A stretch of DNA of 32,000 nucleotides from Candidatus Saccharimonadota bacterium (lineage in GTDB: Bacteria > Patescibacteriota > Gracilibacteria > UBA1369 > 2-02-FULL-48-14), in contig JBAZVE010000001.1 in NCBI GenBank assembly GCA_041661045.1, forward strand, positions 240,001 to 272,000. Reading direction: 5' to 3'. The notes under the pieces are model-generated. The model made no database searches. It saw nothing but the letters and a program-made list of their open reading frames with translations, and was not told the DNA's origin. The first letter of the stretch is position 1, and every line of letters begins with the position of its first letter. A program made the position numbers and the translations under genes. Of this stretch, positions 15,906 through 32,000 are shown piece after piece.

Positions 15906-17492
15906 ATGCCGCCTCTCACTCAAAACTGTCGACTGACCGGGAAACCCTTCACGGTGAGTGAATGGGAACAGGAGTTTTGTGCGCGGATGGGTGTGCCGGT
16001 GCCTTCGCTTTGTCCGGAGGAGCGGCAACGGAAAAGACTGGCGCACAGGAATGAACGGTCGCTATATAAACGGGGCTGTGATTTGTGTAAAAAAGTGATG
16101 ATCGCCATTTATCCGGAGTCTGCGCCCTTCCCCGTGTATTGCAGCGAGTGTTGGTGGGGCGATGGATGGGATCCCATGGATTACGGACAAGCGTTTGATT
16201 TTTCCAAACCTTTTTTTGATCAATTTAAGGAAGTGTATTTTCGGGTGCCGCGGGTGGGTGTGCTCAGTAGAAATGGAGAGAACAGCGAGTACACAAACTG
16301 TGAAGAGGGATCGAAAAATTGTTACCTCACCTTTGCCGGAGGATATTCGGAGGATTGCTCCTATTGTTATTTGAGCATCTCCTGCCGGGACTGTGTGGAC
16401 TGTTCACTCATCAACCATTCTGAGCTCTGTTACGAAGGCTTGGAACTCGACAATTGTTACCACTGTTTTTATCTCCAAAATTCACAAAACTGCAGTGATT
16501 GTGTGCTTGGGGTAGACCTCGTCTCCTGTAAAAATTGCTTTGGCTGCAAGGGGCTCCGGAATAAAGAGTTTTATATTTTCAATGAACCGTATTCAAAAGA
16601 GACTTATGAGGCAAAAATCGCCGAGTTGGATCCGCGTTCACCGGAAGTTCAGGCTCAGTTTTCTGCCCTTTGCTTGTCTATACCGAATAAATTTGCCCAC
16701 CTCAATAATTGTGAGAATTGTACGGGGGATTATATATTAAATAGTCAAAATTGTTTCAACTCTTTTGACATCAAAAATGGGAAGGATCTTATGTATGTCT
16801 ATTTAGGGCAAGATTTAAAAGATGCTTACGACTCTAATGTGATCTTCATCGGCACAGAGCTGATTTATAATTCTCACAGCATCTGCGTGAATTGTTTTCA
16901 AGTGCGTTGTTCCAACTTTTCCTGGAATATTTCTTTTTCGGATTACTGTGATTTCTGCCATTATTCAAAGAATTTGTTTGGGTGCGTTGCATTGAAGCGG
17001 AAAGAATATTGCATCCTCAATAAACAGTATTCAAAGGAGGAATACGAGGTGCTTGTGCCCCGCATCATCGAACACATGAAACAGACCGGCGAATGGGGTG
17101 AGTTCTTTCCTTATTCCGTTTTTGCCTACAATGAAACTTTGGCGCAGGAGTATTTTCCTCTGAGTAAAGAAGAGGCCGTGGAGCTTGGCTACCAATGGAA
17201 AGAACCCGTTGCTCAGGAGTTCGTGGCTGTCCCCGGTGCAAAGACCTGTGAGACCTGTAGAAAGGTGTTCAAATGCATTCAAAAAGAATTGGATTTTTAC
17301 AAGAAAATGAGCTTACCTGAACCGCAGAAATGTCATGATTGCCGACATAAGGCTCGAATGATGGGGCACAATCCACGAGAACTCTGGGCACGACAATGCA
17401 TGAAGTGTTCACGGGACATTCAAAGCAGCACTTCCCCAGATCGGGCGGAACCTGTGTACTGCGAGAAGTGCTATCTTGCTTTGATTTATTGA
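15906..17492 (+). CDS. Cys-rich double-zinc-ribbon / Cys-ladder family protein, paralog 1 of 8 (function unknown)
   Basis: 528 aa, ~42 Cys by my count. Alignable end to end with the seven other copies. The C-terminal module has four intact C-x2-C knuckles (CETC, CHDC, CMKC, CEKC). Confidence 0.9.
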   Translation: MPPLTQNCRLTGKPFTVSEWEQEFCARMGVPVPSLCPEERQRKRLAHRNERSLYKRGCDLCKKVMIAIYPESAPFPVYCSECWWGDGWDPMDYGQAFDFSKPFFDQFKEVYFRVPRVGVLSRNGENSEYTNCEEGSKNCYLTFAGGYSEDCSYCYLSISCRDCVDCSLINHSELCYEGLELDNCYHCFYLQNSQNCSDCVLGVDLVSCKNCFGCKGLRNKEFYIFNEPYSKETYEAKIAELDPRSPEVQAQFSALCLSIPNKFAHLNNCENCTGDYILNSQNCFNSFDIKNGKDLMYVYLGQDLKDAYDSNVIFIGTELIYNSHSICVNCFQVRCSNFSWNISFSDYCDFCHYSKNLFGCVALKRKEYCILNKQYSKEEYEVLVPRIIEHMKQTGEWGEFFPYSVFAYNETLAQEYFPLSKEEAVELGYQWKEPVAQEFVAVPGAKTCETCRKVFKCIQKELDFYKKMSLPEPQKCHDCRHKARMMGHNPRELWARQCMKCSRDIQSSTSPDRAEPVYCEKCYLALIY

Positions 17493-17517
17493 AATCCTCG
17501 GGCAGACCTGCTATTCT
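17489..17517 (+). promoter_or_regulatory. Sigma70-like promoter of paralog 2
   Basis: TTGAAA (17489-17494, overlapping the paralog 1 stop), 17-nt spacer, TATTCT (17512-17517) preceded by TGc. Confidence 0.4.
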
Positions 17518-17537
17518 GGGCCGTCTAACCCATTTGG

Positions 17538-19208
17538 ATGGCCGCGTGCAGGCAATGCAATCAAACCTTTGAAGTCGCTGCGGAGGACCTTGCTTTTTAT
17601 GACAGTATTTCGCCAAGTTTTGCTGGGAAAAAATATCCTATTCCGGCTCCAAAAATGTGTCCGCAATGTCGTCTTCAGCGGCGGATGGCGTTTAGGAATG
17701 AACGCAAGCTTTACACACGGAAAAGTGATTTGAGTGGACGGAGTATTATCAGCAATTATTCTCCTGATAAGCCTCATAAGATATATGACCAGGATGAATG
17801 GTGGTCTGACGCATGGGACCCGCTCGGTTATGGACGAGATTTTGATTTTAGTAGAACCTTTAATGAGCAGTTTAGGGGATTGGTGGAGACCGTGCCTCAG
17901 GTCTCTCTCGTCAATAAAAGTGGTGAGAACAGTTATTATACTAATTTTGCAATTTTTGTACGCAATTGTTATCTCGTATTTGGAGCGGGCAATGATGAGG
18001 ACTGTATGTATGGAAAGTACATTGTGGACAGCAAAGACTGCGTGGACAATTTGGCCATTTACTCCTGTGAACTCTGTTATGAGGGGGTTGCCTCCGAAGG
18101 CTGCTATCAATGCCGGTACTTTTTGAATTCTCGAAATTGTAGCGACTGTTTGATGGTGGATTCCTGCCTTTCATGTAAAAACTGTATCGCCTGCTTTGGC
18201 TTGGTCTCAAAGGAATATTATTATTTGAATACCTTTGTTGGGAAGGAGCGTTTTGAAGAGTTGAAAAAGGAATATGAATATTTAACGGCTAAAAAAGTGG
18301 CCTTTTTGCGGGAGCAGTTGGATGTGCTGAAGGGCCCTTTGCCCCACCGACAAGCGCAAACTTACGGGTGTGAGAATTGCACGGGAGACAATGTCTACAA
18401 CTCTAAAAACTGCCACCATGTTTTTGATGCCAAGGAATGCGAAGATTCTAAATATTTAAACTTTTCCCCAAAAACAAAGAATTCTTATGACATTATTTTT
18501 TGCGCTCCCGACGGAGTAGAGTTTTCTTACAATTTGTGCTCTGTGTTGAGTTTGAAAAACGCAATGAGTAATTATTTGGTTTGGAATGGCAGTGACATTT
18601 ATTATTCTCTCTCCTGCCACAGCTGCAATTCCATCTTTGGCTGCGTGGGCCTCCACAATAAACAGTACTGCATTTTTAATAAGCAGTATTCAAAAGAGGA
18701 GTATGAAATTTTGGTCGGCCGCATTATTGAACACATGCAAAAAACAGGAGAATGGGGAGAGTTTTTTGACTATTCCGTTTCGCCTTTTGGCTACAATGAG
18801 ACGGTGGCGGAGGAGTACTTTCCCCTGAATAAAGATCAAGTGCTGGCTTTGGATGCCAAGTGGCATGAAGAGTGTGACGAACAAATAGATGGAGCGCCTG
18901 TAGATGAAATTCCGGAGGATATTCGGTCTGTGGATGATGAAATTCTAAAAAAAGTACTCCACTGTGAAGTGAGCGGACGCCCTTATAAAATCACGCCCCA
19001 AGAGTTGAAATTTTATAGAAACATGAAATTGCCGTTACCACGGCGCCACCACGATGAACGGCATTTGAATCGCATCGCGCTACACAATCCCTACACCCTT
19101 TTTGACCGGTCTTGTGGAAAGTGTGGCAAAGCTATCCAGACTACTTACACTGAGCTTAGGGCAAAAGTGGTGTACTGCGAGGCCTGTTATTTGGCTAAGG
19201 TTTACTAA
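17538..19208 (+). CDS. Cys-rich family protein, paralog 2 of 8
   Basis: 556 aa. MAACRQCNQTFEV..CPQCRLQRRMAFRNERKLY; conserved block CIFNKQYSKEEYEILVGRIIEHMQKTGEWGEFF; C-terminus ..CGKCGKAIQTTY..VVYCEACYL. Confidence 0.9.
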   Translation: MAACRQCNQTFEVAAEDLAFYDSISPSFAGKKYPIPAPKMCPQCRLQRRMAFRNERKLYTRKSDLSGRSIISNYSPDKPHKIYDQDEWWSDAWDPLGYGRDFDFSRTFNEQFRGLVETVPQVSLVNKSGENSYYTNFAIFVRNCYLVFGAGNDEDCMYGKYIVDSKDCVDNLAIYSCELCYEGVASEGCYQCRYFLNSRNCSDCLMVDSCLSCKNCIACFGLVSKEYYYLNTFVGKERFEELKKEYEYLTAKKVAFLREQLDVLKGPLPHRQAQTYGCENCTGDNVYNSKNCHHVFDAKECEDSKYLNFSPKTKNSYDIIFCAPDGVEFSYNLCSVLSLKNAMSNYLVWNGSDIYYSLSCHSCNSIFGCVGLHNKQYCIFNKQYSKEEYEILVGRIIEHMQKTGEWGEFFDYSVSPFGYNETVAEEYFPLNKDQVLALDAKWHEECDEQIDGAPVDEIPEDIRSVDDEILKKVLHCEVSGRPYKITPQELKFYRNMKLPLPRRHHDERHLNRIALHNPYTLFDRSCGKCGKAIQTTYTELRAKVVYCEACYLAKVY

Positions 19209-19210
19209 TT

Positions 19211-19219: not shown

Positions 19220-19225
19220 CACTTC

Positions 19226-20848
19226 ATGCAGAGCTGTAAGCAGTGTCAAAACCCTTTTGAAGTCACCCCCACCGAGCGTGAATTCCTTAAAAAAGTGGCT
19301 CCAGTTATTGGCGAGCGGCGCTTTGAGATCCCGGAACCCTCCCTTTGCGCTGATTGTCGGCGACAAAGACGATATGCGATTCGAAACGACAGAATTCTTT
19401 ACAAACGGAAATGTGATAAGACCGGTAAGCCGATTGTTTCCGTACACCACGCTGATAAGCCCTTCCCCGTCTACGCCCTGGATGTGTGGTGGAGTGATGC
19501 GTACGATCCCCTGAGCTATGGTCGGGATTTCGACTTTTCCAGGACCTTTTTTGATCAGTTTCATGAGCTATCGACCGCGGTTCCTCGGGCGGCATGCATT
19601 GTTGTGAATTCCGAGAACTGTGACTACACGGCCTTTACTTTACAGTCTCGCAACTGTTTTCTTTCTTCTCGCTTGGCCGACACGGAAGATATTTATTACA
19701 CTTACTTGGCGCTCAAGAGTCGTTCTTGCTTTGACGGGTATAACTTAGCCGAGTGTGAACTTTGTTACGAGTGCATCGATTGCCGCAAATGCTATCGGTG
19801 TTTTTACACGGAAAATTCCAGAGGCTCTTTTAACCTCTTGTTTTGTGCCGATATGTCCGGCTGCAACGACTGTTTTGGCTGTGTGGGTTTGGTGCAAAAA
19901 AAATATCATTTCTTCAATCAGGCCCTTTCAAAAGAAGAGTATGAGAAACGAGTTCAGGAATGGTGGGATGGTTCTCATGAGGCGTTTGTGAAATGCCGGG
20001 CTGCTTTTGAAGCTTTTAGGAAAACCGTTCCGGTTCGTGCAACGGTGGTCCTCAACTCTGAGTATGTGCAAGGAAGTCATATTTTTGACAGTAAGAATGT
20101 GAACAATTCCTTTGATATCGTGGGCTGCGAAGATGTCCTTGATTGCACTCAAACTGAGTTTAGCAAAGACTGTATGGATACCGATTTTGCTTATGAAGTC
20201 GAGCTTCTGTACGAAGTGCTTTCAGGTGGGAAAAGCTCCAGAAGCCTTTTTTCTTTCGCTTTGGTTGGTGGCAGCAGTGAGACGATCTATTCCTGTTATT
20301 GCAGTAACGGTAACCAAAACCTTTTTGGGTGCATCGGTATGAAGGGCAGCAAGTATTGCATTTTCAATAAACAGTATTCAAAAGAGGAGTATGAGATTTT
20401 GGTGCCGCGCATCATTGAGCACATGCAAAAGACCGGAGAATGGGGTGAGTTTTTCCCGGTGGAGCATTCCACAATGGCCTACAACGAGTCTGTGGCACAA
20501 GAACGGTTCCCTCTCACGAAAGAAGAAGTCTTGCAGCGAGGGTGGAGTTGGTACGATGCTCCTGAAAGTGCGGCGGCCCAGGCTGAGGGAGACAATGTGC
20601 TCACCTGTGAAGTGAGTGGCCGAGCTTTCCGTTTGATCCCTCAGGAACTCAAATTCTACAAAGAGATGAACTTACCTTTGCCCACGAAGTGTCCAGATGA
20701 ACGCCATGCCGACCGTTTGGCAAAACGCACCCCTTATCGCTTACGCCCTACCCGGTGCCGGAAATGTTCCACGGAGATATTGACCGACATCCCCACGGAT
20801 GAAAAAATGATTTATTGTGAAGCTTGTTATTTAGCCGAAATCTACTGA
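19226..20848 (+). CDS. Cys-rich family protein, paralog 3 of 8
   Basis: 540 aa. MQSCKQCQNPFEV..CADCRRQRRYAIRNDRILY; CIFNKQYSKEEYEILVPRIIEHMQKTGEWGEFFP; ends CEACYLAEIY. Confidence 0.9.
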   Translation: MQSCKQCQNPFEVTPTEREFLKKVAPVIGERRFEIPEPSLCADCRRQRRYAIRNDRILYKRKCDKTGKPIVSVHHADKPFPVYALDVWWSDAYDPLSYGRDFDFSRTFFDQFHELSTAVPRAACIVVNSENCDYTAFTLQSRNCFLSSRLADTEDIYYTYLALKSRSCFDGYNLAECELCYECIDCRKCYRCFYTENSRGSFNLLFCADMSGCNDCFGCVGLVQKKYHFFNQALSKEEYEKRVQEWWDGSHEAFVKCRAAFEAFRKTVPVRATVVLNSEYVQGSHIFDSKNVNNSFDIVGCEDVLDCTQTEFSKDCMDTDFAYEVELLYEVLSGGKSSRSLFSFALVGGSSETIYSCYCSNGNQNLFGCIGMKGSKYCIFNKQYSKEEYEILVPRIIEHMQKTGEWGEFFPVEHSTMAYNESVAQERFPLTKEEVLQRGWSWYDAPESAAAQAEGDNVLTCEVSGRAFRLIPQELKFYKEMNLPLPTKCPDERHADRLAKRTPYRLRPTRCRKCSTEILTDIPTDEKMIYCEACYLAEIY

Positions 20849-20854: not shown

Positions 20855-22504
20855 ATGCCCGATATTCATCTCACCTGCCGCCTCACAGGAAAACCTTTTA
20901 CGGTTAGTGAGTGGGAGCAAGAACATCTTAAAAAATTTGATGCCCCTTTGCCGGATTTGTGCCCGGAGGAAAGACATCGCAAACGACTTTCCCATCGCAA
21001 TGAACGACGGCTTTATAAGAGAAATTGCTCCATGACGGGGGAGCCTGTAATTTCCGTGTTTTCGCCTGATAAAGATTTGCTCGTTTACCGCACGGAGGCA
21101 TGGAGAGGGGATGCCTGGGATGGACGCGATTATGGGATCGACTATGATTTCTCGAAACCTTTTTTTGAACAATTTGCGGCGTTGCAACGCATGGTGCCTC
21201 ACATGGCACTATTGAATGTGAATGGAGAGAATAGCGAGTATTGCAACATTACAACTGGGAATAAAAATTGTTATCTGGTCTTTGGTGGTGACTTTTGTGA
21301 AGACTGTAGATATTCGGTCTTTAGTATGCACTGCCGAGATGTCTCTGATGTGTATTGGGTGAATGGTTCGGAGCTCGTTTATGACACCTTAGACTCTGAG
21401 AATTGTTATAATATACGCTACTCTCAAAAGGCTTTTGGATGCAGGGATAGCAGTTTTTTGTTTGAGTGTCGCAATTGTGAAAACTGCTTCGGATGTGTGG
21501 GTTTGGTTGGAAAGAAATATCATATTTTCAACAAACCTTATCCCCCTGAAGAGTACAAAGAAAAGATCAAAGCCATGCGTTTGGACACCTGGAGTGGGGT
21601 AGAGAATATGCGAAAAGAATTTACTGAGTTCAAACTACAATTTCCTCATCGTTATGTGAAAATTATAAATAGTGAACACTGCACGGGTGATGACATTTCC
21701 GGAGCTAAGAACTGCGAGAATTGTTTTGGTATTTATGGGCCTGCGGAAGATTTGAAGGATATCTTTTTAGGGGGCTGGGGACTCAATGATTCCGCAAGCT
21801 CCGACCATATCGGTCATAAGGCTGAGCTTTTCTACGAAATGTTGGGCTCTATTGATGGTTCTCATTGTGCTTTCTGTACATTTTCTTGGAGTTCTCAAGA
21901 CACTTTTTATTGTAACTTTGTTCTCAACTCCCACGACCTCTTTGGCTGCAGTAATTTGAAGCGGGCGGAGTACTGCATCCTCAATAAGCAGTACAGCAAA
22001 GAAGATTATTTCGCTTTGCGGGGACGGATTGTGGAGCACATGAAATCTACCGGTGAATGGGGGCAATTTTTCCCTGCAAAAAACTCCCTTTTTGCTTACA
22101 ACGAGACAGTGGCTCAAGATTATTTCCCTCTCACAAAGGAGGCGGCTTTGGCTCAGGGATTGCGGTGGTTTGATGAAGAGAAACGGGCACTCACCCCCAA
22201 CGATTTACCTGACTCTATCCATGACATTACGGATGAAATTTTGAGCAAAACCCTGGTCTGTGAAAAAACTGGGCGACCTTACAAAATCATTCCAAGCGAG
22301 CTCAAGCTTTATCGTCAGATGGAAATCCCTATTCCACGGTATGCCCCCGAAACACGCAATGAAATCCGTATTGCTTCCCGAAATCCCATTCAAACATGGA
22401 CCAGGCAATGCGCAAAATGTGCGAAACCCATTGAAACCACTTATGCCCCCGATCGCCCCGAAAAAGTGTACTGTGAGGCCTGTTATTTAGCCGAAATCTA
22501 CTGA
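20855..22504 (+). CDS. Cys-rich family protein, paralog 4 of 8
   Basis: 549 aa. It starts 6 nt after paralog 3. The N-terminal CRLTGKPFTVSEWEQE is identical to paralog 1. It ends CEACYLAEIY. Confidence 0.9.
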   Translation: MPDIHLTCRLTGKPFTVSEWEQEHLKKFDAPLPDLCPEERHRKRLSHRNERRLYKRNCSMTGEPVISVFSPDKDLLVYRTEAWRGDAWDGRDYGIDYDFSKPFFEQFAALQRMVPHMALLNVNGENSEYCNITTGNKNCYLVFGGDFCEDCRYSVFSMHCRDVSDVYWVNGSELVYDTLDSENCYNIRYSQKAFGCRDSSFLFECRNCENCFGCVGLVGKKYHIFNKPYPPEEYKEKIKAMRLDTWSGVENMRKEFTEFKLQFPHRYVKIINSEHCTGDDISGAKNCENCFGIYGPAEDLKDIFLGGWGLNDSASSDHIGHKAELFYEMLGSIDGSHCAFCTFSWSSQDTFYCNFVLNSHDLFGCSNLKRAEYCILNKQYSKEDYFALRGRIVEHMKSTGEWGQFFPAKNSLFAYNETVAQDYFPLTKEAALAQGLRWFDEEKRALTPNDLPDSIHDITDEILSKTLVCEKTGRPYKIIPSELKLYRQMEIPIPRYAPETRNEIRIASRNPIQTWTRQCAKCAKPIETTYAPDRPEKVYCEACYLAEIY

Positions 22505-24105
22505 TGCAGAAAGTATGTAAAAAGTGCAGCGGGCCGTTTGAAATCACTCTTGAGGATGAAGTGTTTTTGAAGAAATTTGAAGTGCCTGCGCCTTCCCTTT
22601 GTCCCGAGTGTCGTAACCAAAGACGATGGACCTTTCGCAATGATCGGAACTTTTATAAGCGGGATTGTGACTTGTGCCATGCCGTCATGATTAGTATTTA
22701 TTCAAAAGAAAAACCTTTTCCTGTTTACTGCAAAGACTGCTATCTCAGTGACGCCTTCGATCCTTTGAAGTACGGCGTTGATTATGACCCCACTCGATCT
22801 TTTTTTGAACAATTTGGTGAGATGCGGGCTCGAGTTCCCCGCATGGCCAGTTACCAAACCCAAAGTGAGAATTCCGACTACACCGTGCACAGTGCTAAAA
22901 ACAGAAACTGCTACATGGGGAACTCTTTCCGTGAGTGCGAGGATGTTTTTTATTCTGATTTTGCTCAGTTTTCAAAGGACAGCATGGATCTTTATATGTG
23001 CAGTAATGTGGAACAATGCTACGACTGCACGGATAGCGACCAATGTTACCATTCCATTCACTTGGAGAATTGCATGAGCACGAATTTTTCTTGTCTTTGT
23101 TTTGATTGCCGCAGCAGCAGCAACTTGATTGCCTGCGTTGGGCTCCGAAGAAAAGAATTCATGGTCTTGAATAAACCTGTTAGTAAAGAGGAATTTGAAC
23201 AGACTTGGACCCGCTTCAATACAGATCCCACTTTCCGTAAAGATTTGGAGGAAAAATATAAGCAACTGCGCCTAGAAACTCCCGTAAAAAGTTTTTGGGA
23301 GAAGAATAGTGAGAATTGCAGTGGGAATTACATCGTGAATTCCAAGAATGCTCAGCACTGTTATAACAGCCGCAGCGTTGAGGATTCTCGTTATAATTTT
23401 GATGTGATTGATGTGAAAGATGCGATGGATATCACTCGCGCCGCGGGTGGTGAATTTTTGTACGAAGTTCATGCCATGATCGATCTTTTCTTCAGTAAAT
23501 TTTGTAACCTTTGCTACCAGTCGAGCGAGCTTGAATACTGTGACAACTGCCAGGCTAGCAAAAAGAGTTTTGGCTGCATGAGCCTTAAGGGGCACAGCAA
23601 CTGCATCCTCAACAAACACTATTCTCCGGAGGACTATGAAAAGCTCCGTGATCAAATAAAAGCGCAAATGTTGGCCGATTCCGAGTATGGCGAATTTTTT
23701 CCGTCTTCTCTCTCGGTTTTTGCCTACAATGAAAGTAAGGCTCGGGACTTTTTCCCGCTGACTCGTGAGCAAGCACTCGCTCAAGGTTACCAATGGCGTG
23801 ATCCGGAGGAAGCGGCCCGCCCCGTGCAGGGTGCTCAAGTCTCCGCAGACATTTTGGCGTGCGAAGGCTGTGGTAAAAATTATCGCATCATCCCTCAAGA
23901 GCTCGCGTTCTATCGCAAAATGGGGCTGCCCCTTCCTCACTTTTGTTTTGACTGTCGTCACCTCAAACGAGTGGCGCTTCAAAATCCTCAACGGCTCTAC
24001 TCGCGCGCGTGCGCAAAATGCTCGGCTCCCTTTGAAACCACCTACGCCCCCGACCGTCCCGAAAAAGTGTACTGCGAAAAGTGCTACTTGGAGACCGTGG
24101 GCTAG
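22504..24105 (+). CDS. Cys-rich family protein, paralog 5 of 8 (most divergent; all eight terminal knuckles intact)
   Basis: 533 aa. The start overlaps the paralog 4 stop (TGATG). Knuckles are CKKC, CPEC, CDLC, CKDC at the N-terminus and CEGC, CFDC, CAKC, CEKC at the C-terminus. Confidence 0.9.
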   Translation: MQKVCKKCSGPFEITLEDEVFLKKFEVPAPSLCPECRNQRRWTFRNDRNFYKRDCDLCHAVMISIYSKEKPFPVYCKDCYLSDAFDPLKYGVDYDPTRSFFEQFGEMRARVPRMASYQTQSENSDYTVHSAKNRNCYMGNSFRECEDVFYSDFAQFSKDSMDLYMCSNVEQCYDCTDSDQCYHSIHLENCMSTNFSCLCFDCRSSSNLIACVGLRRKEFMVLNKPVSKEEFEQTWTRFNTDPTFRKDLEEKYKQLRLETPVKSFWEKNSENCSGNYIVNSKNAQHCYNSRSVEDSRYNFDVIDVKDAMDITRAAGGEFLYEVHAMIDLFFSKFCNLCYQSSELEYCDNCQASKKSFGCMSLKGHSNCILNKHYSPEDYEKLRDQIKAQMLADSEYGEFFPSSLSVFAYNESKARDFFPLTREQALAQGYQWRDPEEAARPVQGAQVSADILACEGCGKNYRIIPQELAFYRKMGLPLPHFCFDCRHLKRVALQNPQRLYSRACAKCSAPFETTYAPDRPEKVYCEKCYLETVG

Positions 24106-24995: not shown

Positions 24996-25328
24996 ATGGC
25001 AAACATCGACGACTTTCAAAAATTGGACATTCGCGTGGGCCGCGTGCTGGCCGCCGAACCCTTCCCCGAGGCACGCAAGCCTGCCTACAAGCTCACCATC
25101 GATTTCGGCGGCGAAGTGGGCACAAAAAAATCTTCCGTCCAAATCACCAAGCACTATGCCCGGGAAGAACTCGTGGGACGACTGGTGCTCGGCGTGGTCA
25201 ATTTTCCTCCTCGCCAAATCGGCCCCTTTGTTTCCGAAGTGCTCACCCTGGGCCTCCCGGACAGCGATGGCGAAGTGGTCTTGACTCAACCTGAACGGGA
25301 TGTACCCGTGGGTGGACGATTGTTTTAA
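24996..25328 (+). CDS. csaA: tRNA-binding domain protein CsaA
   Basis: MANIDDFQKLDIRVGRVLAAEPFPEARKPAYKLTIDFGGEVGTKKSSVQIT..VVNFPPRQIGPFVSEVL closely resembles B. subtilis CsaA / Trbp111-type OB-fold proteins. Confidence 0.85.
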   Translation: MANIDDFQKLDIRVGRVLAAEPFPEARKPAYKLTIDFGGEVGTKKSSVQITKHYAREELVGRLVLGVVNFPPRQIGPFVSEVLTLGLPDSDGEVVLTQPERDVPVGGRLF

Positions 25329-25329
25329 T

Positions 25330-26106
25330 ATGACACCCGATACCCCTATCGCCATTATTGGACTTGGACATCTTGGCAGCAGTATTGCAAAACGGCTCAT
25401 TAGAAATGGACACAAGAAACTTGTTGCTACTCGACGAAATGAAAACGAACTCCAAGCACCTAAAGATCTGAGTCCACATTTAGTCCTGACGACCGACAAT
25501 GAAATGGCCGTGAAAAATGCTGCCGTGATTATATTGGCGACTAAAGAAGCAAGCTTTGAGGACTTTGCAGCTGCCATTAAAGCCGGCCGACAAGGGAAGC
25601 TCTTAATCAGTCTTGGTCCGACCTTCAAACTGAACAAGCTCGATGAACTATTTGGTGGGCACAATGTTCGCTTGATCACTCCGGTAGACGCTAGAAATGA
25701 TGTTATTTGTTACTCAACGGATTCTTTTTGTTCTGATGAAGACGAAAAAGTTCTCCACTATATTTTTGGAGAGTGTATTCAAAAAGTCCCCGAAGAAGAG
25801 ATGCCTCTCGCAACGGCTTTCGTGCTTTTCAGAGGAGTACTCAATTCATTCCTCGATCCCTTCATTCGGGTTGCCGCTCAAGAGGGACTTGATGCACAAA
25901 GCTCACAGAAAATAATGGGGGAAATGCTTATTTCTTGTGGTGAGGAGCTTAGGGATGGAATCTCCTCTGAGAAGCGCCTTGAAAATGCGAGTGGTGGCTT
26001 TAATGAAAAGAGCTTCACCATGCGGCTTTACAAAGAGCTGGAGCCAGCTCAAGTGCTTTTAAAAGACCTGTTTGAGAAGGTTTGTAAACAATTTAAGAAT
26101 CTATGA
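25330..26106 (+). CDS. Pyrroline-5-carboxylate reductase-like NAD(P)-dependent oxidoreductase
   Basis: ORF 25300..26106, trimmed to ATG 25330, 1 nt after the csaA stop. It has the Rossmann motif IAIIGLGHLGSSIAKRL and a ProC-like length and C-terminal helical domain. Assignment to the ProC family is by resemblance only. Confidence 0.7.
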   Translation: MTPDTPIAIIGLGHLGSSIAKRLIRNGHKKLVATRRNENELQAPKDLSPHLVLTTDNEMAVKNAAVIILATKEASFEDFAAAIKAGRQGKLLISLGPTFKLNKLDELFGGHNVRLITPVDARNDVICYSTDSFCSDEDEKVLHYIFGECIQKVPEEEMPLATAFVLFRGVLNSFLDPFIRVAAQEGLDAQSSQKIMGEMLISCGEELRDGISSEKRLENASGGFNEKSFTMRLYKELEPAQVLLKDLFEKVCKQFKNL

Positions 26107-27764
26107 CTCCGATCACAAAAACTTGTACGGTCAGCGGAAAACCCTTCATCATCTCTGATGAGGATCAAGCCTACTACACAAAGATTGGCGTCCCCATGCC
26201 TTCGCTATGTCCCAAAGAACGGCAACGACGACGCCTCAGCTTTCGGAATGAGCGCAATCTTTATCATCGCAAATGCGATCTTACGGGACACCAAATTATT
26301 TCCAACTATTCACCGGATAAGATGTTTAAGGTTTATGAGAAAGACTCCTGGTGGTCTGACGCCTGGGATCCATTGAGTTATGGAAGGCCTTACGATTTTT
26401 CCAGATCTTTTTTCGACCAGTTTCATGAGCTACAACTCGTGGTTCCTCGCATCAATCTTTTTTCAAAGGGAGGTGAGAATGTTGCTTATACAAATCATGC
26501 TACTTACAACAAGGACTGCTATCTTCTTTTTAACGCCACACATTGTGAAGGGGTTCATTACTCGACAAATTATGTCCTCAACTGCAAGAACTGTGTCGAC
26601 TGTTACTCCATCGACCGTTGTGAACTTTTGTACAATAGTGTTTTTTGTGAACAATGCTTTTCATCCACCGACTTGGTGAGTTCCAAGAATTGCTCTGAAA
26701 GTGCTTTTCTTTATGACTGTAGAAATTGCCAAAACTGTTTCATGTCTTATGGCCTAAGAAACAAGAAGTTTTGTATTGGGAATAAACAATACTCTGAAGG
26801 TGAGTATCGGGAACAAATGAAGAAATATGATCTTGGAAGTTATAAAGTCTATAATGAATTAAAAGAAGAGTTTCGTAAAATGTTGAGGGATTCTGCTGTC
26901 CATCGCTTTGCGATTATAGATTTGAGTGAAGACTGCTCCGGAGACTATATTTTTGAGTCTCAAAATACAAAGGAGTCCTTTTACGCGATCAAATGCAAAG
27001 ATTCCAAGTTCATTTATGACGGCTACGAGAACATTGACTGTTATGATGTTTATGAAAGTGCGCTTCAATGTGAAAGGCAGTATGAATGTTACGCCTGTAA
27101 TTACACAAAATATTCCTACGGCTCACATGTGTCTCACGAGAGCTATAATCTCTACTACAGTGATCACTGTTTCAACTCAAATGACTTATTTGGATGTATC
27201 GGTTTAAAGAAAAAAACCTACTGCATTTTGAACAAACAGTATTCCAAAGAAGAGTATCTTGAACTTTTCCCTCGCATCGTTGAACACATGAAACAAACCG
27301 GAGAGTGGGGAGAGTTTCACCCTTCGACACTTTCTCCTTTTGCCTACAATGAATCTGTTGCGCAAGATTTCCTACCTCTTTCCAAGGAAGAAGTTTTAAG
27401 TCGAGGACTTGTTTGGAAGGAAAAGTTGGACGATGGTGCGGCTTATGCGGGACCCGTGATATCCATCCCAGACAATATTAAAGATGTTGAACCCAGTATT
27501 TGTGAGGCTATCTTGCAATGTGATGTCACCGGAAAATATTTCAAAATCATTCCACAAGAGCTAGCGTTCTATAAACAGCTTGGCCTTCCCATCCCTCGCC
27601 AGTGCTTTGAAGAACGCCACAAGGGCCGCACGCAATTCAGGAATCCACGGATTTTGTGGGACCGCACCTGCATGCACTGTAACGCTCCCATCAAAACCAC
27701 TTACTCTCCGGAAAGACCCGAGAAAGTCTACTGCGAAGCCTGTTACTTAAAAACCGTTTATTGA
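26103..27764 (+). CDS. Cys-rich family protein, paralog 6 of 8
   Basis: 553 aa. ATGA overlap with the preceding oxidoreductase gene. Contains CILNKQYSKEEYLELFPRIVEHMKQTGEWGEFHP and ends CEACYLKTVY. Confidence 0.9.
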   Translation: MTPITKTCTVSGKPFIISDEDQAYYTKIGVPMPSLCPKERQRRRLSFRNERNLYHRKCDLTGHQIISNYSPDKMFKVYEKDSWWSDAWDPLSYGRPYDFSRSFFDQFHELQLVVPRINLFSKGGENVAYTNHATYNKDCYLLFNATHCEGVHYSTNYVLNCKNCVDCYSIDRCELLYNSVFCEQCFSSTDLVSSKNCSESAFLYDCRNCQNCFMSYGLRNKKFCIGNKQYSEGEYREQMKKYDLGSYKVYNELKEEFRKMLRDSAVHRFAIIDLSEDCSGDYIFESQNTKESFYAIKCKDSKFIYDGYENIDCYDVYESALQCERQYECYACNYTKYSYGSHVSHESYNLYYSDHCFNSNDLFGCIGLKKKTYCILNKQYSKEEYLELFPRIVEHMKQTGEWGEFHPSTLSPFAYNESVAQDFLPLSKEEVLSRGLVWKEKLDDGAAYAGPVISIPDNIKDVEPSICEAILQCDVTGKYFKIIPQELAFYKQLGLPIPRQCFEERHKGRTQFRNPRILWDRTCMHCNAPIKTTYSPERPEKVYCEACYLKTVY

Positions 27765-29410
27765 TGGCACCACTTACTAAAAACTGTGCGGCGAGCGGAA
27801 AATCTTTCGTTATCTCCGATGAAAATCAAGCTTTTTATGCAAAGATGGGCTTACCCTTGCCCACCCTGTGCCCGGAAGAACGGAGGCGAAGAAGGTTTTC
27901 TCACCGCAATGAACGAAACCTTTATCACCGCAAATGCGATCTTTCAGGGAAGAGCATTATTTCTAATTTTGCACCTGATGGGGACTATAGTGTTTATGAG
28001 CACGGGGAGTGGTGGAGTGATCAATGGGATGCTAAAACTTATGGACAGGATTTTGATTTCAACCGTCCATTTTTTGAGCAGTTTGAGGGTCTGAGCAAGA
28101 AAGTTCCTAAACTGGCCATGTCCGTTTGGAACTCGGAAAATAGCAGTTACTGCAACTATGTTGGGAATGTGAAAGACTCGTATTTGATCTTTGGATCGGT
28201 CTACAGCGAAAAGTGTTTTTACGGCTCGCCTTACTACTCTTTTGACTGCTTGGATACCCTGGTTGTGCGCGAGTGTGAGCACTGTTACGAGTGTGTGGAC
28301 TCTCGAAAACTATACGAGTGTTTCTACTGCCAAGACTGCCACAGTTCGCGAAATTTGATCTATTGTTATGACCTCCAAGCTTGCAGCGATTGCATTGCTT
28401 GTGCAGGCCTGCGGAACAAGCAGTACTGCATTTTTAATGAGCAACTCAGCAAAGAAGAGTATGAGAAACGAAAATCTGAATTTAAATTGTGGGATCCAAA
28501 AATTCAAACGCTTTTAAAGGCCAAACTTGCGGCACTCAAACTTCAAATCCCACATCGCTATATGCAGAGTCGACAGGTAGAAAATGTGAGTGGAAACTAT
28601 GTTTTCCAATCTAAAAATATCGAGAATTCTTACTTCACTGATCGGGCGGAAGACTGTGCTTATTGTATGCAAGTGGTGGACTTAAAGGATTGTTATGATA
28701 ATAATTTCACCGAGGAGAATGAACTGTGTTACGAGTACCTTGGCGCCTACCAAAATCAAAAGCTGCTTTTCTCAAAGTTCTGCAATAAAGTTTTCGAAAG
28801 TGCTTACTGCAACAGTTGTTTCAATTCTCATCACCTTTTTGCTTGTGATGGAATCCGCAATTCGTCTTATTGTATTTTCAATAAACAGTATACAAAAGAG
28901 GACTATGAGGCTTTGGTGCCAAAAATAATTGAGCACATGGGAAAGACCGGCGAATGGGGCGAGTTCTTCCCTGTTACTGGTTCTCCTTTTGGCTACAATG
29001 AGACCGTGGCCAATGAGTACTTCCCTCTTTCAAAAGAAGAAGCTTTAGCTCAGGGCTACCATTGGAAAGAGGACGACGAAAGCAATAGCTATCACGGTCC
29101 GATAACGGAGTTCTCTGAAAACATTGAAGAAGTGGGTGATGATATTTTACAAAAAATTCTGACCTGCGAAGTAAGCGGCAACTTGTACAAATTGATTCCA
29201 CAGGAGTTGGAATTCTACCGCCGAATGAAGTTGCCCATTCCCAAGCGAGCCCCCAATGAACGACATAAAGACCGCTTGGCTATGCGAAATCCACAGACCC
29301 TTTGGCCCAGGAATTGTGAAGGATGTACGATGGCTATAGAAAGCACCTACGCCCCCGAACGACCGGAAAAGGTGTATTGCGAGGCGTGTTATTTAAAGAT
29401 GGTGTATTAA
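27764..29410 (+). CDS. Cys-rich family protein, paralog 7 of 8
   Basis: The ORF track starts at TTG 27761. I prefer ATG 27764, which overlaps the paralog 6 stop as TGATG, the same junction as paralogs 4/5. Contains CIFNKQYTKEDYEALVPKIIEHMGKTGEWGEFFP. Confidence 0.9.
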   Translation: MAPLTKNCAASGKSFVISDENQAFYAKMGLPLPTLCPEERRRRRFSHRNERNLYHRKCDLSGKSIISNFAPDGDYSVYEHGEWWSDQWDAKTYGQDFDFNRPFFEQFEGLSKKVPKLAMSVWNSENSSYCNYVGNVKDSYLIFGSVYSEKCFYGSPYYSFDCLDTLVVRECEHCYECVDSRKLYECFYCQDCHSSRNLIYCYDLQACSDCIACAGLRNKQYCIFNEQLSKEEYEKRKSEFKLWDPKIQTLLKAKLAALKLQIPHRYMQSRQVENVSGNYVFQSKNIENSYFTDRAEDCAYCMQVVDLKDCYDNNFTEENELCYEYLGAYQNQKLLFSKFCNKVFESAYCNSCFNSHHLFACDGIRNSSYCIFNKQYTKEDYEALVPKIIEHMGKTGEWGEFFPVTGSPFGYNETVANEYFPLSKEEALAQGYHWKEDDESNSYHGPITEFSENIEEVGDDILQKILTCEVSGNLYKLIPQELEFYRRMKLPIPKRAPNERHKDRLAMRNPQTLWPRNCEGCTMAIESTYAPERPEKVYCEACYLKMVY

Positions 29411-29571
29411 AAAACTTCGGACTGAATGATAAGCCACTCATCTTCAGTGGGGAGATCGTCAAACTTTAATTTAGCTAAAGCCTTAGCGTCTTTCTCTAGC
29501 TGTTTCTCTGAGAATTCTTTTTTCATTGTGAATGGAATCATGGAATGCCATTAATTCCTTAGAATAATATC

Positions 29572-30327
29572 TTAAATCCTCTCCCACATCCAGTTGAAGA
29601 GGGTGAGGAGAGATTCGTGTAGGTATTTTTCACGGATCTTGATACCCACTTCTTTTTTAGGATCGTAGCTGTTTAGGATGATGTAGTCGTTCACCAAAAT
29701 GATGTCCGACAAAAAAGAGCTTTCCTTCGCAATTTCCTTGATTTGATGATTGGGATTTTTGACCTGACTTTTGTACCAATCTGTGGTGGGGCCGGCGACT
29801 AAAATTTCACGGATGTTGGCCTTGCTTTGGGCGGTGGCTTGCAAAAAATCCTTCACCAGATTTTTGAGGCGCTCATTTGGAATAGCGATTTGAGGGTTGA
29901 AGAAAGCATTGAAATCCCCACTGATCAAGGTTTGAGAGAGTTGCTGATATACGGCTTCCATGGATTCAAATGTAGAAATTTCAAAAGCTCCGAAGTCCTG
30001 TTTCTTGGGTAAAAGCTCTTTCAAATGAGTTTGAAGCAAGCGCGTGGCACTATGAACTTCTTCAAACTGCTCACGAGCACGACCTTCCAAGACTTTAGCC
30101 ACCATTTCTGGAGGTAAACAGTTGAAGTAACTGGTGGACCCACGCTTTTTGCGAGTTACGATCCCAAAATGAACCAAGGCGTCCAAAGCAGCGTACACGG
30201 TAGTCCTTTTGACTTGCAGTTGTTTGGCCACTACGCTGGCGATGCCCTCCCCTCGTTCAAACAAGTGAAGAAACACTTTTTGCTCCATGGAGTTGAGACC
30301 GCAGGTTTGAAGTAGATTGTGGAGCAT
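29572..30327 (-). CDS. TrmB-family transcriptional regulator
   Basis: ORF 29572..30357 (TTG), trimmed to ATG 30327 (MLHNLLQTCGLNSMEQKVFLHLFERGEGIASVVAKQLQVKRTTVYAALDALVHFGIV, a TrmB-type HTH). The start choice is uncertain. Divergent from paralog 8. Confidence 0.75.
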   Translation of the reverse strand: MLHNLLQTCGLNSMEQKVFLHLFERGEGIASVVAKQLQVKRTTVYAALDALVHFGIVTRKKRGSTSYFNCLPPEMVAKVLEGRAREQFEEVHSATRLLQTHLKELLPKKQDFGAFEISTFESMEAVYQQLSQTLISGDFNAFFNPQIAIPNERLKNLVKDFLQATAQSKANIREILVAGPTTDWYKSQVKNPNHQIKEIAKESSFLSDIILVNDYIILNSYDPKKEVGIKIREKYLHESLLTLFNWMWERI

Positions 30328-30375
30328 GGTTGATGTGGCTATCCGCCTTGTTGTCAAAATTATTTTGACAATATT

Positions 30376-30399
30376 AGCTTAACATTAACGGGTTAAGCT
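30376..30399. promoter_or_regulatory. Perfect 8-bp inverted repeat AGCTTAAC-N8-GTTAAGCT in the TrmB/paralog-8 divergent intergenic region (candidate operator)
   Basis: Arms at 30376-30383 and 30392-30399 are exact reverse complements. They lie between the regulator start and the paralog 8 promoter. Confidence 0.4.
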
Positions 30400-30421
30400 T
30401 GCAAGTCATGTTGCTGGACTA

Positions 30422-30450
30422 TTGTTAATTTATGACAAAAGGCTTAGTAT
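30422..30450 (+). promoter_or_regulatory. Sigma70-like promoter of paralog 8
   Basis: TTGTTA (30422-30427), 17-nt spacer, TAGTAT (30445-30450). The predicted TSS falls downstream of the alternative ATG at 30432, which favours the ATG at 30471. Confidence 0.35.
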
Positions 30451-30470
30451 TCGTTCTTGTAACAACCCTT

Positions 30471-32000
30471 ATGGAAACTCTCCAAAAAACCTGTACGCAC
30501 TGCCAAAAGAACTTCGATCTGGATGAAAAGGATCAGGCCTTCTACAGAGAAATGGGTGTGCCCCACCCCACGCAGTGTCCGAACTGCCGTGAACAACGCC
30601 GCTTGGCCTGGCGCAATGAACGCACTCTATATTTGAGGAAATGTGACCTCACGGGTGAGCCCACTTTGTCGGTTTTTTCTGAAGATAAGCCTTACAAGGT
30701 CTACAAAAACGAGCACTGGTATTCGGACAAATGGAACGCCATGAACTACGGGCAGGATTTTGACTTCACTCGGCCTTTCTTTGAACAATTTAATGAACTG
30801 CTACGGAAAGTTCCGCAACTGGCGCTTTCATCCACCGGAAACCAGAACTCCGACTACATCAACCAAGCGGGCTGGTGCAAAGATTGCTATTTGATTTTTG
30901 AGGCTGATTACAATGATAAATGCATGTATTCCACGCATATTGGAGACTCGCGGGACTGCATGGATACCTTGCAAGTGATGAAGTCCGAACTTTGTTATGA
31001 ATGCATCGATTGCCAGAATTGTTATGGTTTGCGTTTTGGGCAAGACTGTATGAACTGCTCCGATTCTTGGTTCCTTAAAAATTGTATTGGCTGCAGCGAT
31101 TGTTTTGGCTGCGTGAATTTGAGAAATAAAAAATATTGCATCTACAATCAACAATATTCACGCGAGGAATACTTGCAGAAATTGGCCGGATTTGACCTGC
31201 AAAACTTGGCTAGCTTACAAAAAATAGGGGAGGACTTCTCAAAATATGCCGTCCAGTTCCCTTGCAAAAATTACCATGGCACCCAGAATGAAGGGTCGGA
31301 GGGTGACTACCTCTATAATACTCAAAATTGCCGCGATTGTTTCGATGTCTACAATGCGCAAGATTGTCGTTTTGTGACGGAGTCGCGCAATGTGAAAAAG
31401 GTCTATGATATGACCGTTTTCGGTTCGCAAAAGGGTGTTGAGTTTTGTTATGAATGTCATGAAATTGGCGAGAGTGTTCGTAACATTTATTTTTCTGACC
31501 AGGTTTGGGAAGGCTGTTACGACATTTATTACAGCAAACTCTGCATGCAAAATTCTCATAATTTGTTTGGCTGCGTGGGGCTGCGTAAGGCCACCTACTG
31601 CATTTTGAATAAACAGTATTCGAAAGAAGAGTATGAAGCGCTGATGCCACGCATCGTTGAACACATGAAAAAGACTGGCGAGTGGGGCGAGTTTTTTCCG
31701 GCGAGTATGAGTCCATTTGCTTACAATGAAACCTTGGCGCAACAGTACTACCCCCTCAGTAAAGAAGAGGCCGAGAACTCTGGCTATGACTGGAAAGAAG
31801 AGGTCAAAAACCCTGTGGTGGAGGGGATCCCAATCTGTAAAGACTGTGGAAAAAACTTCAAAATCGTGACCCAAGAACAAGAGTTTTACAAAAAAATGAA
31901 GTTGCCTGAGCCCACGACTTGTTCCGAGTGCCGCCATAAAAACCGCTTCTCAAAGCGGAACCCACGAAAACTGTGGGAACGGAACTGTGAAGAGTGTCAG
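30471..32000 (+). CDS. Cys-rich family protein, paralog 8 of 8 or more (3' end runs off the right edge of the window)
   Basis: Absent from the ORF track because it has no stop in the window. Manual translation gives METLQKTCTHCQKNFDLDEKDQAFYREMGVPHPTQCPNCREQRRLAWRNERTLYLRKCDLTG...CILNKQYSKEEYEALMPRIVEHMKKTGEWGEFFP...CKDCGKNFKIVTQEQEFYKKMKLPEPTTCSECRHKNRFSKRNPRKLWERNCEECQ. The frame is open for 510 codons to position 32000. Confidence 0.9.
   Translation, partial: METLQKTCTHCQKNFDLDEKDQAFYREMGVPHPTQCPNCREQRRLAWRNERTLYLRKCDLTGEPTLSVFSEDKPYKVYKNEHWYSDKWNAMNYGQDFDFTRPFFEQFNELLRKVPQLALSSTGNQNSDYINQAGWCKDCYLIFEADYNDKCMYSTHIGDSRDCMDTLQVMKSELCYECIDCQNCYGLRFGQDCMNCSDSWFLKNCIGCSDCFGCVNLRNKKYCIYNQQYSREEYLQKLAGFDLQNLASLQKIGEDFSKYAVQFPCKNYHGTQNEGSEGDYLYNTQNCRDCFDVYNAQDCRFVTESRNVKKVYDMTVFGSQKGVEFCYECHEIGESVRNIYFSDQVWEGCYDIYYSKLCMQNSHNLFGCVGLRKATYCILNKQYSKEEYEALMPRIVEHMKKTGEWGEFFPASMSPFAYNETLAQQYYPLSKEEAENSGYDWKEEVKNPVVEGIPICKDCGKNFKIVTQEQEFYKKMKLPEPTTCSECRHKNRFSKRNPRKLWERNCEECQ

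Follow-up and report, generated by a model that had tools for sequence, protein, structure and literature searches.

Eight ancient paralogs of a cysteine-rich family with a predicted double-solenoid architecture lie beside TrmB-like regulators and a VirD4-like ATPase gene in a Patescibacteria genome

Bacteria within the Candidate Phyla Radiation (CPR, or Patescibacteria) have small genomes in which a large share of the genes is of unknown function. Clustered genes for cysteine-rich proteins have already been described in this lineage, i.e., in Candidatus Peribacter riflensis, where these large, secreted proteins contain ~5–11% Cys, are 580–3,860 aa long, mostly carry signal peptides, and are annotated as pappalysin-, FG-GAP-, or lipoprotein-like (Anantharaman et al. 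2016, PMC4736985). Here, we analyzed a 32,000-nt stretch of DNA (hereafter the window) from a genome deposited as Candidatus Saccharimonadota bacterium (GCA_041661045.1, contig JBAZVE010000001.1, positions 240,001 to 272,000 of the forward strand), in which an array of eight genes for cysteine-rich proteins extends from position 15906 to beyond 32000. Unlike the Ca. Peribacter riflensis set, the array proteins are 530–560 aa long, lack a signal peptide, and belong to a family that is not mentioned in that report. The eight genes are ancient paralogs of a soluble family that is centered on the Peregrinibacteria–Gracilibacteria branch of the CPR. This family stands outside the known kinds, and its novelty lies in the lack of a characterized relative and in a new architecture rather than in a demonstrated mechanism.

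Several described families and systems share single features with the array. In both end modules of the proteins, a CxxC motif, an F...FY helix, and a P.P..CP.CR..RR signature are shared with zf_Tbcl (PF13451), zf_Tbcl_2 (PF23477), and TIGR04272 (CxxC-x17-CxxC). These families are themselves uncharacterized small domains and cover ~40 of ~550 residues per end. Unlike zf_Tbcl alone, the finger, which often shows degeneration (CxxSG / CPxE), is here fused to a second zinc ribbon and to a conserved WWSD.WDP..YG.DFDFS.PFF cap. The middle of the proteins recalls the antifreeze protein TmAFP of Tenebrio molitor (PDB 1ezg), a right-handed cysteine-rich beta-helix with the same 12-residue coil and small Cys/Ser/Ala residues at every third position. 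TmAFP was also the sole non-finger PDB sequence touched by the family profile (residues 144–211), with a non-significant E-value of 0.75. The TmAFP repeats read TCTxSxxCxxAx and those of the array [KE]-[ND]-C-Y..., with Cys/Ser at positions 1, 4, 7, and 10. Most coils here, however, have one dominant Cys instead of the i/i+6 disulfide pair of TmAFP. The array proteins further differ by the lack of a Thr-x-Thr ice-binding ladder and of a signal peptide, and by their bacterial, probably cytoplasmic context. We regard this likeness as an analogy in repeat logic at most, not as membership.

The best Foldseek matches in the PDB were left-handed beta-helices of the hexapeptide type (LpxD, GlmU, LpxA, and the gamma-carbonic anhydrase Cam), which share the general beta-solenoid shape. 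The top match, LpxD, reached an E-value of 3.4e-4 at a template modeling (TM) score of 0.07–0.10 and a root-mean-square deviation (rmsd) of 18.8 Å. Membership in Hexapep (PF00132) was rejected, with no match in the eight copies and 79 family members and a repeat period of 3/12 versus 6/18. A metallothionein-like identity was likewise discarded for proteins of 528–556 aa with 4.9–7.9% Cys, an aromatic-rich core, and interchange of Cys and Ser. Finally, type IV coupling protein (T4CP) systems (VirD4/TraD/TrwB) have in common with the array a VirD4/TraD/TrwB-like P-loop ATPase, here as a conserved neighbor. In conjugative systems, the T4CP gene typically adjoins the gene of its substrate, the relaxase (PMC12102498), whereas the ATPase gene here adjoins the array and encodes a DUF8128 N-terminal domain in place of the transmembrane helices of T4CPs. 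Among the features of type IV secretion system (T4SS) substrates, gene linkage was found, but not the disordered, positively charged C-terminal signal, the C-terminus reading ...CYLxxVY; unlike T4CP substrates, the array proteins also lack relaxase motifs.

All eight genes lie on the + strand and are free of internal stops, as judged from the open reading frame (ORF) list and translation. The first operon comprises copy 1 (15906–17492; 528 aa), copy 2 (17538–19208; 556 aa, 33 Cys, with a 9-residue insertion in the N-terminal finger module), copy 3 (19226–20848; 540 aa, 33 Cys), copy 4 (20855–22504; 549 aa, 27 Cys, identical to the database protein P0402), and, as its final gene, copy 5 (22504–24105; 533 aa, 35 Cys). 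Copies 6 (26103–27764; 553 aa, 32 Cys) and 7 (27764–29410; 548 aa, 31 Cys) follow, and copy 8 starts with an ATG at 30471 and runs to the window end at 32000. The genes are separated by 45, 17, and 6 bp or joined by stop/start overlaps within the array: the start of copy 5 shares 1 base with the copy 4 stop, and the start of copy 7, for which an independent Logan assembly (contigs L079/L080) has the identical ATG, overlaps the copy 6 stop. The Logan assembly contains the same genes as the 1.32-Mb JGI contig and completes copy 8, which comprises 536 aa and ends at ~32081 in window coordinates. The array consists of exactly eight copies, since the next gene, 62 bp downstream, encodes a different protein. 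Its footprint of ~13 kb corresponds to roughly 1% of the 1.32-Mb genome.

This gene set had been proposed in a first-pass annotation of the window, and our data agree with it on the coordinates and strand of the eight genes, on an eighth copy that the ORF track had missed, on a minimum of eight copies, on 42 Cys in copy 1 (7.9%; 27–36 Cys, or 4.9–7.1%, in the remaining copies), and on the four landmark motif blocks, which are present in the alignment. The described end-to-end relationship was reproduced by MAFFT, with 40–46% identity of copies 2–8 to copy 1; pairwise identities over match columns of the family hidden Markov model (HMM) were 35–46%. Each copy scored 659–850 bits against this HMM (copies 1–5: 686, 730, 668, 727, and 666 bits), and an SLH-domain ORF at 12943–14556, added as a control, was 18% identical and is a non-member. 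The proteins are soluble, as had been assumed, with no signal peptide or transmembrane helix in any copy (maximal 19-residue Kyte–Doolittle mean of 1.47). That annotation contained neither the internal duplications described below nor the spacing of cysteines by 3 and 12 residues, nor did it note the conserved TrmB-like and VirD4-like neighbors.

TGA acts as a stop codon in this genome, since the complete copies all end in ...CYLxxxY plus a stop that overlaps the next start. The NCBI protein WC777_01200 (P0008, "Candidatus Gracilibacteria bacterium") represents the C-terminal 57% of copy 6 and reads the TGA stop of this copy as Gly, into out-of-frame sequence; its deposited annotation evidently used genetic code 25.

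Homologs of the array proteins are abundant. A word-indexed search returned 6,739 homologs, labeled "hypothetical", "zinc-ribbon domain containing", or plainly spuriously, and an exhaustive profile search returned 6,248 clusters at 50% identity with E ≤ 1e-3, 2,507 of them with E ≤ 1e-30. One homolog, P0432, bears the spurious NCBI name "Epidermal growth factor receptor". Of 599 pattern matches among GTDB species representatives, relatives are encoded by 583, almost all of them labeled Peregrinibacteria, Peribacteria, Abawacabacteria, or Gracilibacteria. We then surveyed 78 fetched loci, picked by similarity to copy 6, by ORF calling plus HMM. This revealed 275 family ORFs, and 230 of the 275 HMM matches were full length (79 sources). 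In Peregrinibacteria, Peribacteria, and Abawacabacteria, the genes normally occur as tandem arrays of 2–11 copies, the largest having 11 copies in 21 kb (L028) and 10 copies (L005). A member from an ALOHA "Gracilibacteria" metagenome-assembled genome (MAG; L077:10001-11683) contains four in-frame TGA codons and is intact only under code 25, with TGA as Gly, so that the family reaches code-25 lineages. A single copy was found in a 1.87-Mb contig of a "Bdellovibrionota" MAG (L059:10001-11650), with a GC content of 0.56 like its flanks and with ordinary Gram-negative neighbors, i.e., acyl-CoA dehydrogenase, B12-radical SAM, YjdM/PhnA, two-component, and PEP-CTERM genes. The CPR orthologs of copy 4 are closest to it (49–55% identity), it falls into the ortholog group of that copy, and it was probably acquired by horizontal transfer out of the CPR. 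Two apparent fusions, i.e., P0193 (731 aa), which joins a GNAT domain to a family protein, and P0213 (808 aa), whose C-terminal extension lacks a Pfam domain, were not accepted, as both look like read-through or gene-call artefacts.

The copies are old, evolve under purifying selection, and do so at an ordinary rate. For seven of the eight, a distinct ortholog with 62–80% identity was found in related genomes (77% and 75% for copies 1 and 2 in L056, 71% and 80% for copies 3 and 6 in L001, and 65% and 72% for copies 5 and 7 in L047, among others), and the best match of copy 8 reached 56%, while paralogs within the window are at most 46% identical. Within-locus pairs had a median identity of 42% (95th percentile, 50%), and only 21 of 230 members had their nearest relative inside their own locus. 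In the seven ortholog pairs, the proportion of nonsynonymous differences (pN) was 0.11–0.25 and that of synonymous differences (pS) was saturated at 0.82–0.91. The rate is ordinary because the orthologs diverge about as much as neighboring proteins of the same genome pairs, i.e., the ATPase (92% and 77% identical), POR-beta (90%), and the GlmU-like protein (66% and 61%). Relatives differ in array content: in the L001/L056 genome, for instance, orthologs of copies 4, 5, and 7 are absent from the stretches seen. Array turnover is a slow birth-and-death process, not rapid diversification. The first-pass annotation had suggested a lineage-specific expansion with a diversifying function. The family is indeed expanded in a specific lineage, but the expansion is not special to this genome, arrays being widespread, and a diversifying function in the sense of fast evolution is not supported, given the orthologs, the purifying selection, and the ordinary divergence rate.

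To describe the architecture, copy 6 was modeled with AlphaFold2 from a 125-sequence alignment (mean pLDDT 93.3, pTM 0.91). The model comprises a finger region (residues 1 to ~115), a beta-solenoid (~120–225), helices (232–263), a second beta-solenoid (~266–375), a helix-and-coil part (382–470), and a C-terminal finger region. On the DNA, these parts correspond approximately to 26103–26438 (N-terminal finger module), 26439–26786 (solenoid 1 plus cap), 26787–26897 (linker helices), 26898–27233 (solenoid 2 plus cap), 27234–27512 (conserved GEWGEFFP...YNET segment), and 27513–27761 (C-terminal finger module). The N- and C-terminal modules are homologous to each other (hhalign, 99.7%, E = 4.8e-26), and so are the two solenoid-plus-cap units (profile–profile, 99.7%, E = 1.4e-26). 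Two internal duplications therefore yield a pseudo-symmetric plan Z–S–S'–Z', in which Z and Z' are homologous double zinc-finger modules and S and S', likewise homologous, are narrow solenoids built from 12-residue coils, each closed by an "NKQYSKEEYE" helix. Between paralogs, identity is 0.48–0.54 in the ends and the 373–465 block, 0.32–0.35 in the solenoids, and 0.23 in the linker. The C-terminal 191 residues, which include the most conserved segment, GEWGEFFP...YNET, reached a pLDDT of only 62.5 and a pTM of 0.35 when modeled alone from eight window sequences. As the segment is confident in the full model and poor in isolation, the models suggest that it is packed against the solenoid and is not a domain of its own.

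Residue statistics were calculated for the 230 full-length members from 79 loci after alignment to the family HMM. In both solenoids, Cys follows a strict 3-residue period and occurs in only one of its phases, where Ser usually takes its place when it is replaced, and a K/E-N/D-C-Y ladder recurs every 12 residues (HMM columns 134–137, 146–149, 158–161, and 170–173). Solenoid 1 ends with a C-x2-C-x2-C-x2-C coil, whose four positions are Cys in 74, 88, 96, and 81% of members, and columns C360 and C369 contain Cys in 98% and 92%. The invariant residues are mainly aromatic, Asn, Gly, Pro, Arg, and Cys; they show no catalytic constellation and include no conserved catalytic His. Of the four fingers (CxxC...CxxC), finger 4 retains its Cys at 98, 95, 95, and 94% and finger 1 at 97, 79, 93, and 78%, and fingers 2 and 3 are frequently degenerate, often down to one Cys. 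All seven complete copies of the window have an intact finger 4, and copies 2, 3, 5, and 8 an intact finger 1. Copy 5 is the sole copy with all four sites intact; copies 4, 6, and 7 retain the last finger only; and copy 1 has full sets of four Cys ligands in fingers 2, 3, and 4 and a degenerate finger 1 (CxxTG / CPEE). This degeneracy suggests that the predicted zinc sites are structural and dispensable.

None of the searches in Pfam, NCBIfam, PADLOC, PDB sequences, or Foldseek gave a match that explains the central ~400 residues, and these remained unmatched in Pfam for 79 diverse members as well. This agrees with the first-pass view that the proteins are no recognized enzyme, defense, secretion, or mobile-element component; PHROGs and PDB and viral folds likewise gave no match to a characterized family of these kinds. 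With the eight copies, Pfam and NCBIfam returned weak hits at the ends to zf_Tbcl, zf_Tbcl_2, TIGR04272, and LIM-like fingers. zf_Tbcl, a "probable treble clef" finger like zf_Tbcl_2, scored 42.3 bits in the C-terminal module of copy 8, the only module above a threshold, and matches to these two families in the other window copies scored 13.6–20.6 bits (gathering thresholds: 24 bits for PF13451, 27 bits for PF23477). Among the 79 diverse members, zf_Tbcl_2 was found in 54 and zf_Tbcl in 21 at E ≤ 1, with best E-values to these families of 1.2e-8 and 7.6e-7. A recurrent Med15 KIX match in Pfam falls on one helix and was dismissed as meaningless. PADLOC defense profiles gave no match for three copies, and PHROGs only phrog_15341 (E ~5e-3), a family of unknown function. 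PDB sequence profiles built from 9- and 125-sequence alignments found only LIM fingers in addition to TmAFP, and a Foldseek comparison of the complete model with the PDB and BFVD yielded nothing beyond generic matches to beta-helices and zinc ribbons (TM-score < 0.12), the finger aligning to phage "zinc-ribbon domain" proteins at 0.4 Å over 40 residues. With tblastn, neither the 50,697 phage records nor the 72,556 plasmid records gave a match, and IMG/VR gave one partial match, which covers 135 bp at the end of a viral contig of 6 kb. A mobile-element or defense-island nature was rejected in view of the lack of integrase, transposase, or defense matches and the conserved chromosomal context (POR, GlmU-like). 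The literature searched did not mention PF13451, PF23477, TIGR04272, or DUF8128, and no paper, Pfam model, or solved structure covering the family was found.

Recurrent neighbors were identified by clustering the non-family ORFs of all loci, and two of them stood out. The first is a TrmB-like winged-helix regulator, represented by 44 genes, which were found in 32 of 79 loci; in 24 cases, the gene is divergent from a family gene and located directly upstream of it. Regulator 1 (24122–24940, − strand; 272 aa; Pfam TrmB, 9.8e-16; ortholog at 74% in L003 and L047) is divergent from an operon of a csaA-like gene, a proC-like gene, and copies 6 and 7. Regulator 2 (29572–30357, − strand; 238–261 aa depending on the start; Pfam TrmB, 8.3e-12) is divergent from copy 8 and ~24–26% identical to the regulator 1 orthologs. 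Profile searches did not detect the TrmB sugar-binding domain in either. Between regulator 2 and copy 8, a perfect 10-1-10 palindrome, TTGTCAAAAT-T-ATTTTGACAA (30351–30371), forms a candidate operator; this 21-bp element is its sole match in the window at ≤3 mismatches, with 0.02 expected by chance. A scan of the sequence for promoters and terminators performed no better than on shuffled sequence.

The second neighbor is an ATPase of ~750 aa, with 22 genes in 20 of 79 loci, usually directly downstream of an array or embedded in it. Next to the window array, its gene begins at ~32144 in window coordinates (L079:14381-16129), 62 bp past copy 8; another example is L005:13471-15711. A DUF8128 N-terminal domain is followed by a VirD4/TraD/TrwB-like P-loop domain, and there is no transmembrane segment. 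The protein is most similar to the DNA translocases TraD, VirD4, TrwB, and CedD, scores far below every NCBIfam T4CP cutoff, and matches phrog_5156, a phage family of unknown function, over most of its length (E = 2.9e-72), so that relatives occur in viral or prophage sequence. In a reverse test starting from ATPase genes of diverse long contigs, four of six had 2–9 family genes within 10 kb, often together with a TrmB-like gene. In the loci examined, as distinct from whole genomes, no VirB4-like, VirB6-like, or other T4SS channel genes were present. A 2025 survey counted 5,713 VirD4 homologs in Patescibacteria, only 148 of them near virB4, and proposed that they may be exapted for another function (PMC12102498).

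Three loci (L001, L003, and L045; e.g., L003:13311-13649) contain an opposite-strand gene for ~112 aa between the last array gene and the ATPase gene, which resembles a MazF/PemK toxin by eye. A DsbA/thioredoxin_4 gene directly follows a 10-copy array (L084:21393-21980), and a thioredoxin gene follows an ATPase gene without an array (L083:12749-13246); both may be relevant to cysteine chemistry or may be a coincidence. The remaining neighbors were housekeeping or sporadic, with MazF-like and ORF6N genes in a few loci.

As a tentative explanation, to which we assign a probability of about 35% as a whole, the array proteins would be rigid, zinc-stabilized scaffolds or adaptors that act as clients of the orphan DUF8128–VirD4-like ATPase. 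A scaffold is favored over an enzyme because the invariant residues show no catalytic constellation. A common partner would be bound through the conserved parts, i.e., the end modules and the GEWGEFFP...YNET segment, and the specificity of each paralog would lie in the solenoid faces, which are more variable. The genes form translationally coupled operons, and subsets of them would be under the control of dedicated, divergently transcribed TrmB-like regulators. The common partner would be the ATPase encoded at the array end, with the paralogs as adaptors or cargo.

Several points weigh against this explanation. No experimental or homology-based evidence speaks for any function, and the tie to the ATPase is one of gene linkage. 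Its frequency of 20 in 79 loci is moreover inflated by the choice of loci by similarity to copy 6, whose orthologs adjoin the ATPase gene. The ATPase family is spread throughout the CPR, including lineages in which the cysteine-rich family was not seen (PMC12102498), and two of the six ATPase loci in the reverse test had no family gene nearby, which disfavors a strict dependence. As the single Bdellovibrionota copy has neither a TrmB nor an ATPase neighbor, the protein is able to function without these two. The existence of separate TrmB-like regulators for sub-operons argues against one fixed hetero-complex. With regard to the fold, the every-third-residue Cys/Ser side chains presumably point inward, and the coil geometry is likewise deduced from DSSP and the periodicity of the sequence. 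A purely structural role does not account for why Cys is so strongly preferred to other small residues.

Among the alternatives, a role as nucleic-acid-bridging or -measuring factors is possible, though unlikely. Here, Arg-rich finger ends would bind DNA or RNA at a fixed spacing set by the solenoid rod, together with an FtsK/TraD-type DNA translocase in DNA uptake, processing, or nucleoid organization. Basic helices are conserved after the zinc knuckles (RxxRRxxxRNER in the N-terminal and RHxxRxxxRNPR in the C-terminal module), and R40, R44, R48, N49, R505, and R509 are invariant or nearly so. The C-terminal module has a net charge of +3 to +8, but the N-terminal one is nearly neutral (0 to +3) and the proteins are acidic overall (pI 5.5–6.3). 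The similarity of the adjoining ATPase to DNA translocases and a tRNA_bind gene beside the arrays of four loci would fit such a role, as would the name "Zn ribbon nucleic-acid-binding protein" given to one member by one source; the label is automatic, however, no characterized DNA- or RNA-binding domain was matched in Pfam or NCBIfam, and a need for 8–11 ancient paralogs is hard to see. The same ATPase linkage, the CsaA-like export chaperone homolog in the operon, and the DsbA/thioredoxin genes beside an array or ATPase (L084, L083) could instead point to exported cargo, i.e., to ATPase substrates sent to the surface or a host as effectors or building blocks of host-contact filaments, with the cysteine ladder forming disulfides outside the cell as in the Tenebrio beta-helix. 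Like T4SS substrates, the proteins lack a signal peptide; their multi-paralog arrays have conserved ends and a variable middle; their 12-residue Cys/Ser coil resembles disulfide-bonded TmAFP; and CPR bacteria are typically epibionts (PMC12102498). We nevertheless consider export quite unlikely: the ATPase has no transmembrane segment, the loci contain no T4SS channel genes, the C-terminus is a folded, near-invariant zinc finger instead of a disordered signal tail, and zinc fingers are unusual among exported proteins. In addition, i/i+6 Cys pairs are frequent only in the last coil, the orthologs differ from typical effectors in that they evolve under purifying selection and at an ordinary rate, and the t4cp homolog of Southlakia was reportedly not essential for the epibiotic growth of this bacterium (PMC12102498).

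The 27–42 Cys per protein raise the question of metal or redox chemistry, with solenoids that hold stacks of Zn, Fe, or Fe–S or buffer thiols for storage, detoxification, or electron transfer. The four-Cys last coil of solenoid 1 and the columns C360 and C369 are in line with this, as are a weak ArsR/SmtB-type helix-turn-helix match in regulator 2 and the Fur and ferredoxin genes that adjoin an array in L082. Most ladder Cys, however, swap freely with Ser, and also with Thr, Val, Leu, or Gly, as fits small-residue packing and not metal ligands, and the best four-Cys coil reads C-S-L-C in copy 5 and is one Cys short in four other copies. With aromatic-rich proteins of 530–560 aa unlike metallothioneins, no Fe–S Pfam domain in the eight copies and 79 members, and paralogs that are ancient rather than recently amplified, this explanation is very unlikely. 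Still less probable are beta-helix enzymes of the transferase type, e.g., sugar or amino-sugar acyltransferases with paralog-specific substrates that are induced by sugar-sensing TrmB proteins. Such enzymes would be in keeping with the acyltransferases LpxD, GlmU, LpxA, and NeuO as top Foldseek matches, with the classical role of TrmB regulators in sugar sensing, and with the heavy investment of Peribacteria in amino-sugar envelope polymers (PMC4736985). But the matches are nominal (E ~3e-4, TM-score 0.07–0.11, rmsd 12–20 Å), the repeat has periods of 3 and 12 instead of 6 and 18, and none of 79 members matches Hexapep, whereas the adjacent GlmU-like gene does so at 8e-17; a conserved catalytic His is missing, and the window regulators have no detectable sugar-binding domain. 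An assembly artefact or decaying duplicates, both of which the first-pass annotation had named as grounds for rejecting a functional family, are refuted by the evidence. A few split or shortened family ORFs do occur elsewhere (e.g., L020, L023, L039, and L046), yet some apparent fragments are code-25 genes that are intact with TGA as Gly, the copies in the window are uninterrupted, most matches elsewhere are full length, and purifying selection is strong. The two independent assemblies agree, and with no more than 46% identity between copies, collapsed or duplicated repeats are excluded.

A more far-reaching version of the scaffold/adaptor explanation, which we consider doubtful, is that the array products are the clients that have long been sought for the orphan, soluble VirD4-like ATPases in Patescibacteria. 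The proteins would then be narrow cysteine-ladder rods whose conserved zinc-finger "handles" are recognized by a motor derived from a coupling protein, which would move or assemble them without a canonical T4SS channel, and different subsets of the paralogs would each be turned on by a TrmB-like regulator of their own, e.g., to build or arm a host-contact structure. If true, this would amount to a new protein-handling system specific to ultra-small symbiotic bacteria and to a new cysteine-ladder solenoid fold class in bacteria. The role of the ATPase in Patescibacteria is an explicitly open question (PMC12102498), for which a functional link, if true, would name a concrete candidate partner. 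If there is no such link, the bacterial 12-residue cysteine-ladder solenoid would still be a clean target for structural genomics. In either case, a family of thousands of clusters gains a confidently predicted fold and several handles, i.e., the Z–S–S'–Z' domain plan with predicted zinc sites, the TrmB-like regulators with a candidate operator, and the ATPase linkage.

Two further genes belong to the second operon. It is opened by a gene for a CsaA-like tRNA_bind protein (24996–25328, + strand; 110 aa; Pfam tRNA_bind, 3.4e-15; NCBIfam tRNA-binding protein/chaperone CsaA, 1e-51), which adjoins family arrays in the window and in L001, L047, and L070. In Bacillus, CsaA is described as an export-related chaperone. 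The gene for a ProC-like NAD(P) oxidoreductase (25300–26106, + strand; 268 aa) comes next, its stop overlapping the copy 6 start (ATGA); it was rejected as a conserved partner, as it is not kept beside arrays elsewhere. The left flank of the array encodes a tRNA-Arg(CCT) (2173–2247), a LexA-like repressor (2771–3457), enolase (4312–5697), a serine dehydratase beta/alpha protein (7547–9171), a PurN-like formyltransferase (9159–9773), 2-oxoacid:ferredoxin oxidoreductase alpha/beta (10039–12680), the SLH-domain protein used as a control, and a GlmU-like nucleotidyltransferase/hexapeptide protein (14557–15801, − strand; Hexapep Pfam, 8.2e-17). The GC content drops from ~0.52 in this flank to ~0.44 across the array.

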